This document shows, piece after piece, positions 14-63,556 of a stretch of 64,000 nucleotides of DNA. Numbering within the stretch: the first letter of the stretch is position 1; each line of letters opens with the position of its first letter. Position numbers and translations under genes: made by a program. The stretch is from IMG/VR virus record IMGVR_UViG_3300044800_000286. One strand, written 5' to 3'. The notes under the pieces were generated by a model. That model had not been told where the DNA came from. It did not search any database and saw only the letters and a list, made by a program, of their open reading frames with translations. The DNA comes from a virus.

Positions 14-89
14 TGGTGGACCTGATGGGATTCGAACCCACGACCTCCTCGATGCCATCGAGGCGCGCTCCCAACTGCGCCACAGGCCC
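14..89 (-). tRNA. tRNA-Ala(GGC)
   Basis: Cloverleaf, anticodon arm CCTCG-ATGGCAT-CGAGG, G3:U70, A73, encoded CCA. Confidence 0.95.
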
Positions 90-95
90 AAAACT

Positions 96-172
96 TGGTA
101 GCCCGGACGGGGCTTGAACCCGTAATCTTCACCTTGAGAGGGTGACGAGTTAGCCAGTTACTCTACCGGGCC
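96..172 (-). tRNA. tRNA-Glu(CTC)
   Basis: Anticodon arm TCACC-CTCTCAA-GGTGA, T-loop TTCAAGC, encoded CCA. Confidence 0.93.
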
Positions 173-184
173 GAACTCAAAAAC

Positions 185-258
185 TGGAGCGGGGTACGGG
201 ACTCGAACCCGTTTCTCCACCTTGGAAGAGTGGTACACAACCCATATGCCAACCCCGC
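185..258 (-). tRNA. tRNA-Gly(TCC)
   Basis: Anticodon arm CCACT-CTTCCAA-GGTGG, U73, encoded CCA. Confidence 0.93.
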
Positions 259-265
259 GCAAAAC

Positions 266-592
266 TTTGTGTCAGACCGATAAGCCGGGTTCTGTCTGGG
301 ACAATCATTCATCTATGACGTACATCGCTGCACGCCTCAAGCTCCCAACCCGCCGCTTGGTAACGCCCCGAGCAGGGGCTCACGGCCTATTTGGGATTGC
401 TCCGCATGGAGGTTGCCCGTTTCACCCGCACGGTTTCTGCTTGGCAAGCATAATACCGTGCGACTCGTCTCTGTTGCCCTATTCGTCATCCGGCCTTTCA
501 ACCAAACGCCCAGCCGTTAGCTGGCATGCTGCTCTGTGGAGCCCGGACTTTCCTCCCCCATTGCTGGCGGCGATTGTCTAGCCTGACACAAA
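266..592 (-). ncRNA. rnpB: RNase P RNA (bacterial type A-like, apparently lacking P13/P14)
   Basis: Universal motifs GAGGAAAGTCCGGGC and ACAGAACCCGGCTTAT on the minus strand; terminal P1 helix TTTGTGTCAG/CTGACACAAA; P18 with GCGA loop. Confidence 0.95.
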
Positions 593-595
593 CTC

Positions 596-670
596 TGGAG
601 CACCCGGTCGGTGTCGAGCCGACTCGTAACAGTTTTGCAGACTGCCGCGTTCCCGTTTCGCCACGGATGC
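596..670 (-). tRNA. tRNA-Cys(GCA)
   Basis: Anticodon arm GCAGT-CTGCAAA-ACTGT, U73, CCA; atypical T-loop CTCGACA. Confidence 0.88.
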
Positions 671-676
671 AAATTT

Positions 677-751
677 TGGCGGTGCCAGCGGGAGTCGAAC
701 CCGCGCTTCTACCGTGACAGGGTAGTGTCAGTACCGCTTGACCATGGCACC
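677..751 (-). tRNA. tRNA-Asp(GTC)
   Basis: Anticodon arm CTACC-CTGTCAC-GGTAG, G73, CCA. Confidence 0.93.
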
Positions 752-790
752 GCATTGTCCGAAGCGCACATCGTTCTTCAGACACAAACT

Positions 791-864
791 TGGTGGACCT
801 GAGGAGAATCGAACTCCCAATTCAGCCTTGCAAAGGCCGCAGTTTCCCGTTAGCATACAGGCCC
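791..864 (-). tRNA. tRNA-Ala(TGC)
   Basis: Anticodon arm CGGCC-TTTGCAA-GGCTG, G3:U70, A73, CCA. Confidence 0.92.
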
Positions 865-1136
865 ACAATCTGTTCCCACGACAAACCCAAATACTTCATG
901 CACCAATGGACTGCTTTGTGGCAACGAAAACACAATCTCACAAACTCCCCACTTTTCATCTCAATCTGGTGTTCTTTCTCTCCCATTGATTCAAATCTCT
1001 TGTGTTCTTTACCATCTTTTCGATGCGCAACTGATCTCTTTGAATAACTACAAAAGAAACACTCTTTTCCAAGATTTGTATCAACTATCGCTCGCTTTCG
1101 GTCCCTTCGCTTCTTATTCCACTTAGCAGTCGCCAC
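822..1136 (-). CDS. small HNH-like Zn-binding endonuclease
   Basis: CxxC...H...LCxxCH pattern; AT-rich insert in the tRNA array; 3' end overlaps tRNA-Ala. Confidence 0.6.
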   Translation of the reverse strand: MATAKWNKKRRDRKRAIVDTNLGKECFFCSYSKRSVAHRKDGKEHKRFESMGEKEHQIEMKSGEFVRLCFRCHKAVHWCMKYLGLSWEQIVGLYANGKLRPLQG

Positions 1137-1162
1137 AAACCCACCTTGGATCGCCTAAACTT

Positions 1163-1236
1163 TGGAGCGGACGATGAGAATTGAACTCACGCCTGAACGT
1201 TGGCAACGTTCCGTACTACCACTATACTACGCCCGC
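1163..1236 (-). tRNA. tRNA-Gly(GCC)
   Basis: Anticodon arm GAACG-TTGCCAA-CGTTC, U73, CCA. Confidence 0.93.
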
Positions 1237-1237
1237 T

Positions 1238-1313
1238 TGGTAGCCCCTGTCGGAATCGAACCGACGGCCCTTCGGGTGTAGACCGAATGCTCTGACCGCT
1301 GAGCTAAGAGGCT
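1238..1313 (-). tRNA. tRNA-Val(TAC), C33 variant
   Basis: Anticodon arm TTCGG-TCTACAC-CCGAA, A73, CCA. Confidence 0.85.
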
Positions 1314-1331
1314 GCACAAAATATCGATCCC

Positions 1332-1411
1332 GTCTGCACAGGGTTCCGAATCGAACGGGGAGGGAATGACCCCCTTTGCTGGTCGCCTATGCCAGCCTGC
1401 CCTGTGCAGAC
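1332..1411 (-). ncRNA. tRNA-like structured RNA candidate (no CCA)
   Basis: Perfect 12-bp closing stem GTCTGCACAGGG/CCCTGTGCAGAC enclosing three hairpins, the last with T-loop TTCGATT. Confidence 0.6.
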
Positions 1412-1416
1412 AAGAG

Positions 1417-1452
1417 AACAAAAACAAAAAGGACGACCTTTTCAGATCGTCC
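1417..1452 (-). terminator. intrinsic terminator (attenuator) upstream of the tRNA array
   Basis: GGACGATCT-GAAA-AGGTCGTCC followed by TTTTTGTTTTTG. Confidence 0.85.
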
Positions 1453-1505
1453 TCGGAATCTCTTGGTTGGTTTCTGCTTATCCTTCCCAACCATCCTCCG
1501 AGGAC
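1449..1505 (-). promoter_or_regulatory. antiterminator hairpin
   Basis: GTCCTCGGA/TCCGAGGAC plus TGGTTGG/CCAACCA; its 3' arm overlaps the terminator 5' arm and its 5' arm lies in the last leader codons. Confidence 0.75.
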
Positions 1506-1603
1506 ACGGTATCGGCCCCTGCCGCGAAGCCTTCAAAGGCTCCGACCGCGCATACGCCGCCCAAGGTGTCTGCGGCGGCGACGAATTGGAGACTGCGGTT
1601 CAT
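1478..1603 (-). CDS. attenuator leader peptide MNRSLQFVAAADTLGGVCAVGAFEGFAAGADTVSSEDGWEG (41 aa)
   Basis: ATG...TAA read by hand, GAGAG upstream, stop codon lies in the antiterminator loop. Confidence 0.75.
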   Translation of the reverse strand: MNRSLQFVAAADTLGGVCAVGAFEGFAAGADTVSSEDGWEG

Positions 1604-1657
1604 GTCTTCGGTACTCTCTATCTTGATACTGCGTATTCGGAAAACTCCCGGTTATTA

Positions 1658-1808
1658 ACGGAAGCTGCCCGGTAGGGAGTCAAAACCCTATCCGTGCCCG
1701 GATCGCAGCTTGCGCTGCGGCATCGCCCCGAACTATGCGGGGGCATTCTGCCGTATGATCCACTCCTGCGCAGGGGCGAACCACGTTAAACTACGGGCAG
1801 CTTCCCGT
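1658..1808 (-). ncRNA. structured RNA candidate with tRNA/tmRNA-like ends
   Basis: Terminal stem GGAAGCTGCCCG/CGGGCAGCTTCC, T-arm-like TAGGG-TTTTGACT-CCCTA, GCAA tetraloop, nested hairpins; TTGACA promoter just upstream. Confidence 0.6.
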
Positions 1809-1841
1809 ACTCCCTATCAATACCGCGAAAGCGGGAATCTT

Positions 1842-1880
1842 GTCAAGAACTATTTTTGGGAATTATCCCTTTAACTCCAC
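1842..1880. repeat. 39-bp promoter-associated direct repeat, copy 1 (others at 2652-2690 and 4031-4069)
   Basis: 35/39 identity to copy 2 and 31/39 to copy 3 by manual alignment. Confidence 0.85.
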
Positions 1881-3216: not shown

Positions 3217-3285
3217 GCTGTATTGTGTTGAAAACAAGCTAGTTACAAGATACTTGTGGAGTTAAAAGGATAGTTTCTCTATTTG

Positions 3286-3483: not shown

Positions 3484-3687
3484 TTAGACCGGGACCACGT
3501 TGGCCGCTTGCAGGCCCTTGGGTCCGGTCACGACCTCGAACTCGACGGCCTGTCCCTCGTTCAGGGACTTGTAGCCGTCCGCCTGGATCGCGGAGAAATG
3601 GACGAAAACGTCCTCGCCGCTCTGGCGCTGGATGAATCCGTAGCCCTTGCTGGCGTTAAACCACTTCACTGTTCCTTGTTCTTTCAC
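3484..3687 (-). CDS. cspA: cold-shock protein
   Basis: GTVKWFN, KGYGFI and DVFVHFSAI motifs. Confidence 0.97.
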
Positions 3688-3858
3688 TGCTTTACCTCTG
3701 CTGCTTTCTGTTTAAATTTCGCTACTTCTATGCGAAGAGCGAGTACCAAACTCGAATTGGACCGTGCCGCACTTCACCGGTACAGTCAATACCCTAATGA
3801 GATCAAAAGTCCGACATTCCCTGTCAGATCGTCCGCGTCGCCCTCCCAAGGCTCCGCG

Positions 3859-4093: not shown

Positions 4094-4477
4094 TCAATGG
4101 GCAATCATCCGGACTACGCGGGCTAAACAGGCCAAGCCGCCGATGTAAATAGCGAAATCACCCACGCTGAAGATGCTATGCAGCATGTGGATGCGGTCGC
4201 ACAGCAGCGGGGCGTGAGTTGACCCCGTAGCTGGTTGATAATTTTTGGTCCAGTCGGCCGCATAACCCTCTCGCTCGAAAACCGGCATACGACCTCCGTT
4301 GGCTTCTACGGCGACGAGATTGAGGAGGCATCCTATTACCGCTAGGGTCCAGCAAGCGGCAGCCGAGCCGCCCACGCCTTTCCATACGGGAACGCAGAAG
4401 AGGGCGCATCCCACCGCCAAGGCGATATAACTGATACGGCTGACCGGCTGGAAGGCGCTTGTCGTGTTCTTGCTCAT
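4094..4477 (-). CDS. DUF5317-like membrane protein
   Basis: TM helices plus ANGGRMPV, LLCDRI and FSVGD motifs. Confidence 0.75.
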   Translation of the reverse strand: MSKNTTSAFQPVSRISYIALAVGCALFCVPVWKGVGGSAAACWTLAVIGCLLNLVAVEANGGRMPVFEREGYAADWTKNYQPATGSTHAPLLCDRIHMLHSIFSVGDFAIYIGGLACLARVVRMIAH

Positions 4478-6043: not shown

Positions 6044-7963
6044 CTATGCAAGCTCGCAGTTGTTGGCCGAGCATGCGAGTTCCTTGGCCCCGTCGGTCAT
6101 GTCCTCGGTCTCGAATTGCTGGAGAAGGCCCCAGTCTATCGCGGGCATCTTCTCCAGCAGGCTGTAATACTCGTCCTTGGATATTTCCTTGTACGGGCTC
6201 TGCTTGTAGATGTGGTTGGAATGCGGCAGGAAGGAGACCCCGCCGATGATGTCGAAATGCTTGTACACCCACGCCAGCACTTCGGTCCATTCGCTCTCTT
6301 TGACGTAGATCGTGCAGGACGGGTTGTGCTCCGTCCAATGCATCTTGTACGTAAGGTAAAGCTCCAATTGCTGGATGGCATTCAGGTCATTCCTGCAAAC
6401 GCTCGTCTCCGGGGACTCCATTGGGAAGTAAAAGACATCCACGTCGTTCGGCTTCACCGACTCGGGCTCGTTCGGTATGCCGATGGACTTGAGGAAGGCC
6501 GACACCGGGCTCTTGCGGTCCTCGCGCACAGCGCGGACGAGCCAGCGGGAGAAACGAGTGTGAATGCCGGAGGAACTGTTCACCAACTGGCTCACGGTGC
6601 CGCTGGGCTTCACGCAGGTGATGGCGGCCGGGACCTCGATGCGGAGCTTGGCGGCCCATTCCGTGGCGACCTCGACGGCGTACTCGCGGAATTCGTCCAG
6701 CAGCTTCTCAAGCTCGGGCCCGTTGGCGGACATCATCTTGTTGTCCATGATCCCGGTCAGGGACACGCCCAGCAGGCGTTCCTCCTCGGCGTTCGTCTGC
6801 CATTCCCTGCGCAGGTAGCGGAATTTCGTCAGGGTGGATTGGAGGCAGCCGATGATCGTGGCGAGCCGTATCTTCTTTTTGATGCTCGCCTTGGTGTCGT
6901 TCGGCCGGATCACGCATTCGCTGAGGTTGCACAGGCCCTTGGAACGCAGGATGATCTCCGCGCACGGATTCACGCCGAAATCGATGTTCTCCCACTTGCG
7001 GCGGCCCGTCTTCTTCGCCCATTGCTGGGCCGCGACCCGGTTGAAGATGCCGCGCTCTCCGGATTTCGACTCGATCAGGGTGAGGAACTCCCTGATGAAG
7101 ATTTCCGGTTCCGGCTTCTCCGTGTAGGCGACGGAATTGTTCGCGAGGCGGCGGTAGTCGAAATCGGTCCACCACTGGCCGTTCTTGGCGTTGCGCATGC
7201 GCTCGTCGCTGAGGTTCGACAGGGATAGCATTGCCGAGCGCCTGACGCCCCCCACGACCACGATGTCCGCGATCGTGCACATCAGGTCGTGGCATTCCAG
7301 CGAGTTGAGCTTGCGGCCCGCCGCCTTCTGGAAGATGCTGATGGTGAACTTGAAGAGGCGGTCGAGGGGCCCTGGGCCGCTCGCCCTGCCGCCCATGGTG
7401 CGGAGGACCGACCCCGCGGGGCGGACGGCGCTCAAATCCCACTTCGGGATGAGCCCGCCGTACAGAAGGGAAACCAGTTGGCGAAAGGAACTGGCCCAGC
7501 CGATCTTGCTGTCCCGGACTTTGATGACCGTATCCGTGTCATAGAATTTCTCGGCGACGACGGGCATCTGGTTGACGTACTGGCGCTCGACGCTGAAGCC
7601 GACGCCCGTCCCGCACATGCTGATGTACATCGCCTCGTCGAACGCACGCGGATCATCTACTGCAAGATAAGAACAATTGTACCCGGCACAGTTGTCTTTT
7701 TCGAGGGCTTCCCCCGCGGTCATCATCGCGCGCATGGACGGCATGACCTCCATGCGGAGGATCGCCTCCTCGATTTCCTTCGCGGTAGACTCCCTGTCCG
7801 CCTTGGGAATCCTGGGAGTAAAAAACTCTGTGTAGCGATGGACCGTTTCGTCCCAGTGTTCGCGGCGGCCTTTTTCGGGAAGCCATCGGGCATAGCGACT
7901 CTTGTGGATGTATTGGGAATAGGGTGAAATGTTGTACGCGGCATCAACGGCCTTGCTGACCAT
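6044..7963 (-). CDS. nrdJ: class II (AdoCbl) ribonucleotide reductase
   Basis: PSMR, YNC, GTGVGFS, VGGVRRSA, NPCAEI, TCVKPSGTVS motifs and C-terminal CxxxxC. Confidence 0.96.
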   Translation of the reverse strand: MVSKAVDAAYNISPYSQYIHKSRYARWLPEKGRREHWDETVHRYTEFFTPRIPKADRESTAKEIEEAILRMEVMPSMRAMMTAGEALEKDNCAGYNCSYLAVDDPRAFDEAMYISMCGTGVGFSVERQYVNQMPVVAEKFYDTDTVIKVRDSKIGWASSFRQLVSLLYGGLIPKWDLSAVRPAGSVLRTMGGRASGPGPLDRLFKFTISIFQKAAGRKLNSLECHDLMCTIADIVVVGGVRRSAMLSLSNLSDERMRNAKNGQWWTDFDYRRLANNSVAYTEKPEPEIFIREFLTLIESKSGERGIFNRVAAQQWAKKTGRRKWENIDFGVNPCAEIILRSKGLCNLSECVIRPNDTKASIKKKIRLATIIGCLQSTLTKFRYLRREWQTNAEEERLLGVSLTGIMDNKMMSANGPELEKLLDEFREYAVEVATEWAAKLRIEVPAAITCVKPSGTVSQLVNSSSGIHTRFSRWLVRAVREDRKSPVSAFLKSIGIPNEPESVKPNDVDVFYFPMESPETSVCRNDLNAIQQLELYLTYKMHWTEHNPSCTIYVKESEWTEVLAWVYKHFDIIGGVSFLPHSNHIYKQSPYKEISKDEYYSLLEKMPAIDWGLLQQFETEDMTDGAKELACSANNCELA

Positions 7964-8223
7964 GGTATGGAAAATTCCTCTCGAAGCTTGGGTATGAACT
8001 GTGGAGTTACAATGCAGTTCGATTCGGGTGACAACTTAGGTTTAGATATTAGGCGGATTCACTAACTCGCGGTTTTCGAAGCGGACGCGATTTCCCAACC
8101 ATTGCTGGGAAAAGCGGAGTCGGAAGAAAAATCTTCGGGTGCCGCTCCAACCCGGCACCCGAATCTTTTTGCGCCTGGAGCTTAATACTCTAGGCCGCTG
8201 CGACTTTAAGGAAGTTTTGGGAA

Positions 8224-61268: not shown

Positions 61269-63318
61269 CAATAAAATCTCTCCCGACCAACTGTACTTGA
61301 AAAGCCGCGAGCAACTTTTGCAATACGAAGATGCCCGGATGAACTCGCTGATTCAGGGCATGGCGAACTATTATACAACAAGAAACGATCAATCAATTTG
61401 GGGGAACTTCCTCCGCGCCCTCGCGCAGGAACTCGGAAAGCTCGACTACTATTATTCCTATGACATCGTCAACAAGAACCCGAGCTATCTGACGCCGCCC
61501 GACATCCGCCGCCGCTGGAACGATCCGCTTTACATCAGTTCCAACTGGCCGAGCAAGACGCAATTCGACACCGACTTCAAGACGATGCTGATCGAATTGA
61601 TCTCGGCATACCGCGAGGGCTCCACGGCCAAGGGCATACAGGACGTGATCCATGCCTACACGGGCATCAACATACAGGTGCAGGAGCTTTACAAGGAGAT
61701 CGGCAACGGAGTTTACGACCAGTCCGACCGCAACGCCATCAAGGTCAGCGTCAGCGTGGGCAACAACTCGCTCAGCGAGATCGCCACGCTCACCCAGCTT
61801 CAGCAGATCGTGGAGAGCCTCTACGGCGCAATCGACCTTGCCAAGCCAGCCCACGTCGGGCTGGAATTCACCACGATATTCGGCGAAGACGAGGACATCG
61901 ACTGCTTCATCAGCCCGGCGTACGTCACGCAACAGCAGTACATCACCCTCACCCCGACGCAGCAGTCGCTATATTCCCTGACGGGATACGTGCTCGTCAA
62001 TCCTCCGGTCTTCTGGCAGGCGAGCACGCCCACCTCGAACCCGTTCAACCTGTACACGTTCCTGCGGGACACCAACGGCAACCTCCAGATGGTGACGACG
62101 GCGGGAAAGCCTGGCACGGTTGAACCGGTGTGGAATACAGCATCCGATGGCGAGACTGTTGACAGTATAAGCAGCCCCCCCATCGCCAACCCCATCACAT
62201 GGACCAACATTTCCCCCGCGGTGACCAACCTTGTTGTAAATGCAGCGTCGTTAAGCCCAGCCATACCAACCACGGTTACTGTGACTTTCGCTCCGAAGTA
62301 TGCGCCGACATTTACTATCTTGCAGCAGGTCAAGCTCATCGGTTTGACCGATCCGAACTTCACGTTCCTGAACGGCGTGCAGCTTAGCGTCCTGACTTCC
62401 ACATCCACGACTTTCACCGCCGCCCTCGGTTTTACGCACGCCCCCACGGCTTCCGTGGCACAGTTGGCGGGCACAGTGGGCTACTTGCCTTCCGCTTCCA
62501 TCAACCTCTTAACCTATAGCGACCTTCCGTCCGTGTTGCAACCGCTCTACCAGCAGCAGTACACGAACACAAACTGCTCGTCAAGCGGGATCGAGGACAC
62601 ATTGCGCATATTCATCCGACTGGTTGAAGAGCCTCCGGAAACCCCGATGCTCATCCAAGCCCCCGTGCTTGACCCGACCAACCCCACCACGACGGTCACG
62701 GCTTGGGGCGAGGTGTTGTCCCCGGCCCTTTCGGTGCATGACTGGGGTCTGTTGCCGACCATCACGTTCAACGTCATAAAGACAGTTGCAGACGGAATCA
62801 ATGCAACTTACACATTCGACAATTTGGCTGGGGGGCTTACCGTCGTCCCGCCGAATCTGGACCTGCACGAAGGCATGCGGGTCACCATCGTGGGCTGCAC
62901 GAACGGTTTGACAGGTTCGTCGCTACAGTCGCCGTTCAACACCACGGGCAAGATTCAAAACGTGACCAGCACCACGTTCCAAATCCCGTTGGCTCAGACG
63001 ATTGCTTTGGCGACAGAGACAGGCAGCGGCACGGTTACCCCGACATTACAGAGCGCCTATGCGCTTCAGGGCGGCCAATACGTCCTCTTGCAGGACGCTT
63101 CCTTGCCGCCACTCAGCGACCCGACGCTCAATCCGCCGACAAGGTGGATTGCGGTCATCGGCGTGGATAAGGCGACTAACACGCCGCTGAATCCCTATCC
63201 TTCGGGCGAAGTGGCGAACTGGGACATCACCCACCCGGCGGGGCTTGTTGCGCCCCGCTTGAGTCAAACATGGGAGATTTCTGGCGGAGATGAGTATTTC
63301 ATTTACGGGTTATCGTAG
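61261..63318 (+). CDS. baseplate wedge protein (gpI/gp7-like)
   Basis: GST..GI...I..YTG and KPAH motifs following the J-like gene. Confidence 0.75.
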   Translation: MVNNKISPDQLYLKSREQLLQYEDARMNSLIQGMANYYTTRNDQSIWGNFLRALAQELGKLDYYYSYDIVNKNPSYLTPPDIRRRWNDPLYISSNWPSKTQFDTDFKTMLIELISAYREGSTAKGIQDVIHAYTGINIQVQELYKEIGNGVYDQSDRNAIKVSVSVGNNSLSEIATLTQLQQIVESLYGAIDLAKPAHVGLEFTTIFGEDEDIDCFISPAYVTQQQYITLTPTQQSLYSLTGYVLVNPPVFWQASTPTSNPFNLYTFLRDTNGNLQMVTTAGKPGTVEPVWNTASDGETVDSISSPPIANPITWTNISPAVTNLVVNAASLSPAIPTTVTVTFAPKYAPTFTILQQVKLIGLTDPNFTFLNGVQLSVLTSTSTTFTAALGFTHAPTASVAQLAGTVGYLPSASINLLTYSDLPSVLQPLYQQQYTNTNCSSSGIEDTLRIFIRLVEEPPETPMLIQAPVLDPTNPTTTVTAWGEVLSPALSVHDWGLLPTITFNVIKTVADGINATYTFDNLAGGLTVVPPNLDLHEGMRVTIVGCTNGLTGSSLQSPFNTTGKIQNVTSTTFQIPLAQTIALATETGSGTVTPTLQSAYALQGGQYVLLQDASLPPLSDPTLNPPTRWIAVIGVDKATNTPLNPYPSGEVANWDITHPAGLVAPRLSQTWEISGGDEYFIYGLS

Positions 63319-63556
63319 TCAATAATCCCCAGCCCTAAAGGGCGGGGCTTGGTGAGTTCCACCGAGCACATTGACCAGACTAAGTTCTAACCAACTACGT
63401 TTCACAGGCCACGACACCCAAGAATGCTTGCCAGTTTTTGGCTCTGTCTTCAGCAATCATGCTCCTGAAAGATAAAGCAGGGAAGGTCGCTGATACACAA
63501 ACCTGAGAAACATTGTCGAGGCAAACTTTACCGGAGCAATCCGAGAGGACATTTAG
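63318..63556 (+). ncRNA. omega-RNA (HEARO-like) of IscB element
   Basis: GTCAA..CCC.GCCCTAAAGGGCGGGGCTTG...TTGACCAGACT..CTACGTT...CATTGTCGAGG upstream of IscB. Confidence 0.85.

Follow-up and report, generated by a model that had tools for sequence, protein, structure and literature searches.

A codon-matched leader ahead of a phage tRNA array probably acts as an attenuator sensing the supply of its own tRNAs

The window, the 64,000-nt stretch of DNA analysed here, forms part of the IMG/VR virus record IMGVR_UViG_3300044800_000286 (G000; 100.7 kb, 32% complete), which comes from a giant phage. On its minus strand, a short leader open reading frame (ORF) and a pair of alternative hairpins precede an array of tRNA genes with an RNase P RNA (Table 1). 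Followed past the left edge of the window, the full array comprises RNase P RNA and 14 tRNAs (Val x3, Ala x3, Gly x3, Asp, Glu x2, Cys-GCA and Phe-GAA), all of which read GNN codons except Cys-GCA and Phe-GAA (12 of 14). The original prediction, made from the letters of the window, had placed eight tRNAs and the RNase P RNA 3' of a terminator, and all were confirmed inside the window. Its description of the array as exactly Val, two Gly, two Ala, Asp, Glu and Cys held within the window and failed overall, six further tRNAs lying past the edge. A Phe tRNA had been expected there and was found (Phe-GAA); the Trp, Ser and Thr tRNAs expected with it are not in this array.

Table 1. Positions of the leader module, the array and neighbouring features, in window coordinates unless a contig is named.
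Feature	Position	Strand	Remarks
Promoter-like site	1817..1846	-	sigma70 -35 match, 18-nt spacer, imperfect -10; read from sequence
Multi-hairpin RNA	1657..1808	-	12-bp closing stem, T-arm-like last hairpin; z -3.45; inverted repeat I5
Conserved promoter-like motif directly upstream of leader	1623..1645	-	invariant alignment columns
Leader ORF, 41 codons	1478..1603	-	all 11 aligned leaders keep the start codon and a late Asp codon
Antiterminator 5' arm (region 2)	1497..1505	-	leader codons 33-36; 9/9 pairs
Antiterminator inner helix	1464..1493	-	leader stop codon in loop (folds)
Antiterminator 3' arm (region 3)	1449..1457	-	4-nt overlap with terminator 5' arm
Intrinsic terminator	1420..1452	-	hairpin 1452-1431, U-tract 1430-1420
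tRNA-like cloverleaf	1328..1415	-	z -4.54; overlong acceptor stem, no CCA; first RNA past terminator
tRNA-Val(TAC)	1313-1238	-	part of 1163..1313
tRNA-Gly(GCC)	1236-1163	-	part of 1163..1313
Low-GC ORF, 104 amino acids	822..1136	-	inserted in array; end lies within tRNA-Ala(TGC)
tRNA-Ala(TGC), tRNA-Asp(GTC), tRNA-Cys(GCA)	596..864	-	
RNase P RNA, bacterial class A	265-589	-	RF00010, 209 bits
tRNA-Gly(TCC), tRNA-Glu(CTC), tRNA-Ala(GGC)	14..258	-	
Array beyond left edge of window	G000:C1:76038-77766		Gly-CCC, Val-CAC, Ala-CGC, Val-GAC, Phe-GAA, Glu-TTC
Cold-shock protein	3687-3484	-	<=91% identity to bacterial homologues, mostly Acidobacteriota; best host clue

All coordinates predicted for the leader ORF were verified, and its codons were recounted. 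From codon 8 to codon 41, 25 of 34 are GNN (8 Ala, 7 Gly, 4 Val, 3 Asp, 3 Glu) and one is Cys; 14 distinct GNN codons are used. Codons 7-31 form a sensing zone, 23 of 25 being cognate to the array, and codons 32-41 a structural tail. The leader peptide belongs to no Pfam family above cut-off. The antiterminator (1505-1449) and the terminator hairpin were confirmed as mutually exclusive through their shared positions 1452-1449, as was the U-rich tract of 11 nt that follows. This terminator is the sole strong terminator-like site across the whole array region, and its exact pattern had no matches in viral contigs. The features found are those of a leader-peptide attenuator: a short conserved ORF, matching codons, a terminator with a U-tract, and an exclusive antiterminator with one arm in the ribosome-covered region. 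A T-box riboswitch was considered and rejected, as no T-box family was hit, whether at gathering score or with E relaxed to 10.

Relatives of the window phage were gathered via ribonucleotide reductase (RNR) and chosen without regard to structure. In 11 other RNR-anchored loci, a GNN+Cys array carries the same leader module before its first Val tRNA. Across the 12 homologues 107 of 108 antiterminator pairs are kept, and two-sided (compensatory) changes occur at five of the nine positions; duplex energies were -19.8 kcal/mol for own arms versus -14.4 for crossed arms (0/100,000 permutations). Terminator stems differ in sequence in each homologue, with pairing and U-tail kept. The relatives' leaders (n = 11) are 31-44 codons long, the frame being kept over seven different lengths and with peptide identity down to 24-53%, and the antiterminator 5' arm begins 19-25 nt upstream of the stop codon across homologues. 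A -10-like hexamer (1628-1623 in the window, where the -35 is weak) lies 9-30 nt upstream of the start codon in all 12. This conserved anatomy with its compensatory base changes supports the attenuator interpretation. Similar leaders were found in eight metagenome loci (L184-L189, L191 and L193, one truncated), which were selected by pattern and so left out of the covariation count. By blastn, RNase P RNA lies within or next to the GNN array in L001, L002, L003, L005, L006, L008, L010 and L047-L051. Pairing between the start region of the leader and region 2 is strong in three of the 12 homologues (the window, L001 and L008; shuffle p 0.017, 0.003 and <0.004) and weak or absent in the remaining nine; a protector (1:2) helix, which would allow termination when the leader is untranslated, is thus tentative.

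For every one of the 14 array anticodons the window's leader holds the Watson-Crick codon, 12 of them within the sensing zone. None of 27,252 40-codon windows taken from the phage's long ORFs holds all 14 cognate codons, and 31 hold 13. Ala, Val, Gly, Asp, Glu, Cys or Phe account for 29 of 40 leader codons, versus a fraction of 0.40 in phage ORFs (binomial p 3e-5). Tail Ser and Trp codons form the antiterminator arms; because similar tails recur in the leaders of other arrays, the Trp, Ser and Thr codons are read as mostly structural. Within the RNR clade of the window, Phe-GAA in the GNN array together with mid-leader Phe codons (23 and 26) is seen in the window only, with the caveats that the array of L002 may be incomplete, that Phe at codons 3-5 also occurs without a Phe tRNA, and that codon 12 is Phe in two of the truncated loci from metagenomes.

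The tRNA set of this phage family is divided over 4-5 arrays per genome. A search of the other arrays of related genomes for leaders matching their own tRNA sets, as originally proposed, found them in four near-complete jumbo relatives (G001-G004). Besides the GNN block, the main arrays there are Trp/His/Arg/Asn/Lys/Gln-CTG, Ile/Thr/Gln-TTG, Tyr/Leu/Ser and Pro/Met/Phe, and each main array is preceded by a short leader of its own in which the residues of that array abound (the sequence upstream of the G002 Leu array lay outside the fetched set). When whole leaders were permuted among arrays, with no picking of zones, the true assignment ranked first in every genome (G001, 1/120; G002, 1/24; G003, 1/24; G004, 1/120). 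Leaders also follow rearrangements. Two arrays are merged in G003, and their joint leader (L070) covers the nine amino acids in full. In G004 the leader of the Val/Ile/Phe/Gly/Glu/Asp array (L072) has no Ala and no Cys codons; Ala codons are found in L075, whose array has Ala-TGC, and Cys codons in L076, whose array has Cys-GCA. Leaders therefore covary with array content, a test on which the prediction had been staked beforehand.

Matching extends to isoacceptors. Leaders of arrays with Gln-CTG only contain five CAG and no CAA codons, those of arrays with Gln-TTG only (Ile/Thr-type) five CAA and no CAG, and the leader of the lone array with both Gln tRNAs has both codons. Six families are read by a single G34 tRNA. 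For their codons in the leaders, the U-ending ratio is 35:12 where that tRNA is encoded by the array behind the leader and 2:39 where it is not (genome, 31% U-ending). These counts share ancestry, the nominal p (7e-12) exaggerates the effect, and the bias is weak in the window's own leader. Codons read by wobble slow first when a tRNA becomes limiting, and the bias therefore suggests that codons making sensitive sensors were selected for.

The leaders of Ile/Thr/Gln arrays (L064, L066, L076 and L077) keep Arg-CGA codons, and L076 keeps Tyr too, with no such tRNAs called in these arrays. Sorting of all arrays by codon first base was rejected: only the GNN block is so sorted, and the others mix bases. 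The Leu/Ser/Tyr array consists of tRNAs with a long variable arm.

Folding with and without a masked ribosome had been proposed as a check, and was carried out for co-transcriptional and for full-length RNA. In co-transcriptional snapshots, in which RNA was visible only up to the antiterminator end, the antiterminator probability in 12 of 12 homologues was ~1 until the ribosome was in the last ~10 codons and then ~0, a drop partly built in by the masking. Ten leaders of other arrays have similar geometry and similar tails, with the terminator 24-35 nt past the stop. At full-length equilibrium the terminator wins when the ribosome is in the tail; in the window, however, it also dominates otherwise (0.94 without a ribosome, ~0.8-0.9 at most stall positions), so that the switch is not crisp there and equilibrium folding is not decisive. 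Read-through would therefore need kinetic trapping, the antiterminator persisting while the polymerase crosses the U-tract.

From the observed anatomy, conservation, covariation and selection on codon choice we infer translation of the leader, termination at the hairpin and read-through on stalling. RNA polymerase would transcribe the leader while a ribosome follows. With all cognate charged tRNAs available, the ribosome would reach the last ~10 codons and cover the antiterminator 5' arm; the terminator would then fold and transcription end near 1425. Should any Val, Ala, Gly, Asp, Glu, Cys or Phe tRNA be scarce, the ribosome would stall in codons 7-31, the antiterminator would fold first, and the polymerase would continue into the 14 tRNA genes and the RNase P RNA. 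The tRNAs are thus probably made only when ribosomes read the matching codons slowly. The whole would constitute a negative feedback loop in which tRNA synthesis follows the supply of the same tRNAs, and with 4-5 arrays, each behind a codon-matched leader, the tRNA inventory would be monitored block by block. We put the probability that the module is a ribosome-dependent transcription attenuator sensing the supply of the tRNAs it controls at roughly 0.8.

The same switch might instead sense general translation speed or transcription-translation coupling, with any slowdown inducing and the codon match secondary. As long as the tail is free of ribosomes the antiterminator forms first, so global inhibition could give read-through, and general stress on translation switches on the trn operon of Anabaena (PMC8421152). 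This is nevertheless improbable: such a sensor would have no need of 4-5 leaders per genome with different wording, or of codons that track the tRNAs between arrays, and it leaves the Gln isoacceptor split and the U-ending bias of cognate codons unexplained. A sensor of amino-acid starvation like the trp, his and ilv leaders, for which the signal is uncharged tRNA and not tRNA abundance, is a shade less probable again. A stalled ribosome cannot distinguish a missing from an uncharged tRNA (his leader, PMC4046918), and the matching is mostly at the amino-acid level; but the regulated products, tRNAs and RNase P RNA, do not relieve starvation, the matching reaches isoacceptors (Gln CAA/CAG, and 14/14 codons in the window's leader), and one codon per tRNA would suit near-total loss over graded starvation. 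Least probable is a constitutive or protein-controlled terminator with no coupling to translation, the ORF being a trans-acting peptide, a small RNA or a GC-rich by-product, since, even if equilibrium folding in the window favours the terminator and Ala/Gly/Val codons easily arise in GC-rich hairpins, frame, codon class and stop-to-terminator distance (~21-35 nt) are kept despite the low peptide identity, and the Lys/Arg/Asn/His, Thr/Ile/Gln or Leu/Ser/Tyr codons of other leaders are unexplained by GC content.

Several points weigh against an attenuator that senses its own tRNAs, in addition to the masking effect and the equilibrium folding given above. Each tRNA is sampled by just 1-4 leader codons, and the codons cognate to Val-CAC and Glu-CTC are found in the tail only. 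The Pro/Met/Phe leader L067 has more Thr than Pro, Met or Phe codons. Counts across relatives are phylogenetically non-independent, and a look-alike leader in Streptomyces, at ilvB, was unresponsive to codon changes (PMC1262725). Lastly, no canonical terminator is found at some leaders (Pro/Met/Phe type, and several in G004). Codon-matched leaders with alternative hairpins and without a canonical U-tract terminator were seen at L065 (~7940-8010), L067 (~3700-3770), L073 (~3555-3615), L072 (~4135-4245), L075 and L076; these possibly use a second output, e.g. Rho-dependent termination or processing control.

A stalled ribosome signals lack of charged tRNA from any cause. That the product is tRNA, that isoacceptors are matched and that each tRNA has about one codon would favour tRNA loss over amino-acid starvation as the trigger. 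Loss could be caused by host anticodon nucleases; general decay during infection or high demand are other options. A tentative extension, which we hold to be possible but do not favour, is a multi-channel counter-defence sensor: with a full tRNA set split into blocks, the phage would read the tRNA inventory of the host through the matched leaders, anticodon by anticodon, and switch on only the block with the nuclease-destroyed tRNA (here together with RNase P RNA). If so, the leaders would read out which tRNAs are attacked in uncultured hosts. A plausible reason to sense tRNA loss during infection is given by phage tRNAs that act against tRNA-targeting defences, T5 tRNA-Tyr against retron-Eco7 and tRNA-Lys against PARIS and PrrC (PMC11555353, PMC11464382, PMC10264068); expression of these defence-countering tRNAs was, however, ascribed to a strong promoter, and PMC11555353 mentions no leader or attenuator. 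No RtcB tRNA-repair ligase was found in five genomes.

Upstream of the leader, the promoter-like site at 1817..1846, as read from its letters, may feed the leader as well as the multi-hairpin RNA, and it fails a consensus scanner. The multi-hairpin RNA has no Rfam match at gathering score. A counterpart precedes the leader in L001 (15748-15907, nhmmer E 0.004), the only relative with one in the same position, and the idea that the switch requires this RNA was rejected; scanning for its pattern returned 18 matches outside the contig of L001, none with the closing stem or with nearby tRNAs. Another conserved structured RNA of ~80 nt lies upstream of the leader in L001 (15611-15695), L002 (6340-6420) and L008 (15641-15715) and is absent from the window. 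A tRNA-Ala(TGC) gene upstream of the leader, outside attenuator control, is present in L002 (6094-6168), L005 (15346-15421), L008 (15234-15309) and L072 (3837-3912). The Smr-domain ORF just upstream of the module (2187-1843, minus strand; PF01713 above cut-off) was considered as a member of a ribosome-stress module and rejected: the relatives' fetched loci lack it, so that it is probably mobile cargo, and its 3' end overlaps the end of a repeated element (1861-1882; partner 3254-3275; copy 2664-2688).

The tRNA-like RNA predicted after the terminator was confirmed as a cloverleaf (~1415-1328, z -4.5). It falls below ARAGORN and Rfam thresholds and has no match in the other fetched loci, being unique to the window phage among these. 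A permuted or standard transfer-messenger RNA (tmRNA) at the leader or at this RNA was rejected: there was no call at default thresholds, and the ARAGORN call at a lowered threshold lacked a tag-like peptide. Elsewhere, at G000:C1:4713-5061 (minus strand), there is a candidate permuted tmRNA that has an Ala-rich tag and is followed by a terminator of its own. The inserted 104-amino-acid ORF has Cys/His motifs that look HNH-like by eye; it has no Pfam match above cut-off and is absent from relatives. A second low-GC ORF in the array with HNH-like Cys/His motifs (G000:C1:77176-77684) follows a tRNA D-arm-like fragment. Stable non-tRNA hairpin units stand between tRNA genes outside the window (G000:C1:76385-76474 and 76755-76950; L061 3386-3475 and 3756-3950) and had no matches in relatives. 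Position 33 of tRNA-Val(TAC) is C, where U is usual, and tRNA-Phe(GAA) (G000:C1:77040-77115) has G37. Anticodon loops are mostly identical to those of one Terriglobia genome, which may not be the host; differences from it are C33 in Val-TAC and G38 in Ala-CGC, and for G37 of Phe-GAA there was no host Phe for comparison. A tRNA with anticodon CTA lies at G000:C1:1463-1535 (minus strand), and others are in L064, L066 and L077; these are possibly amber suppressors. At the far end of the window, a HEARO RNA (RF02033, 120 bits; 63318-63531, plus strand) is followed by an ORF of 422 amino acids from 63557; this is likely an IscB/OMEGA-type element.

Relatives found through RNR are 300-463 kb in size and 99-100% complete by CheckV, with 43-69 tRNA matches. 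In the RNR tree the window falls in a supported clade (100/99) with L001, L008, L002 and L005, with G004 outside it. Phage status rests on IMG/VR and CheckV classing, the terminal repeats of G004, and a lytic tail-like protein and DnaB among the window genes; Terminase_6N was not found in the domain search, and a Sheath domain was found in G004 only. The best bacterial matches of the cold-shock protein are mostly from Acidobacteriota, and the host is therefore suggested, on this sequence similarity, to belong to that phylum.

The module resembles his/trp-type leader attenuators in having a short ORF with regulatory codons, competing antiterminator and terminator, a U-tract and a decision set by ribosome speed (PMC4046918; PMC1262725). 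It differs from them in having tRNA genes and RNase P RNA, not enzymes, under its control, in sampling seven amino acids and 14 anticodons, each by one or a few codons and without runs of a single codon, and in being found in a phage, repeated per array with different wording and with a protector (1:2) helix that is only tentative. The thr and ilv leaders are multivalent. The pheST attenuator and the predicted leuS and trpS2 attenuators likewise read charged-tRNA supply through a leader and control a part of the translation machinery, but for one amino acid and with a protein product (PMC1262725), whereas here many anticodons are read and the product is the tRNAs themselves. In the Anabaena trn operon and L-arrays, the nearest precedent for a tRNA operon, a supernumerary tRNA array is also switched on when translation is impaired (PMC8421152, PMC10272220); there a DNA-binding repressor, TrcR, acts at initiation on one 26-gene operon without codon specificity, and 'leader' and 'attenuat' are absent from the text of PMC8421152. 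T-box riboswitches also set antiterminator against terminator by tRNA status, but bind one uncharged tRNA directly and without translation (PMC7778990), where the phage leader would depend on the ribosome. The original prediction knew of no multi-codon tRNA-inventory attenuator in a phage; no leader attenuator on tRNA genes was found in the published literature searched, most subscription papers lying outside the search.

The purpose of phage tRNA genes has been debated for decades, with codon compensation, replacement of degraded host tRNA and evasion of anticodon nucleases all proposed (PMC10264068). An array tied to the decoding of its own codons would make that purpose directly testable, because the condition that induces read-through is what the tRNAs are for. 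Leader-peptide attenuation would be extended from enzyme operons to tRNA genes, as a feedback loop at the level of isoacceptors, and bacterial toxins and defence systems that target tRNAs could be assayed with the leaders as natural multi-codon reporters.

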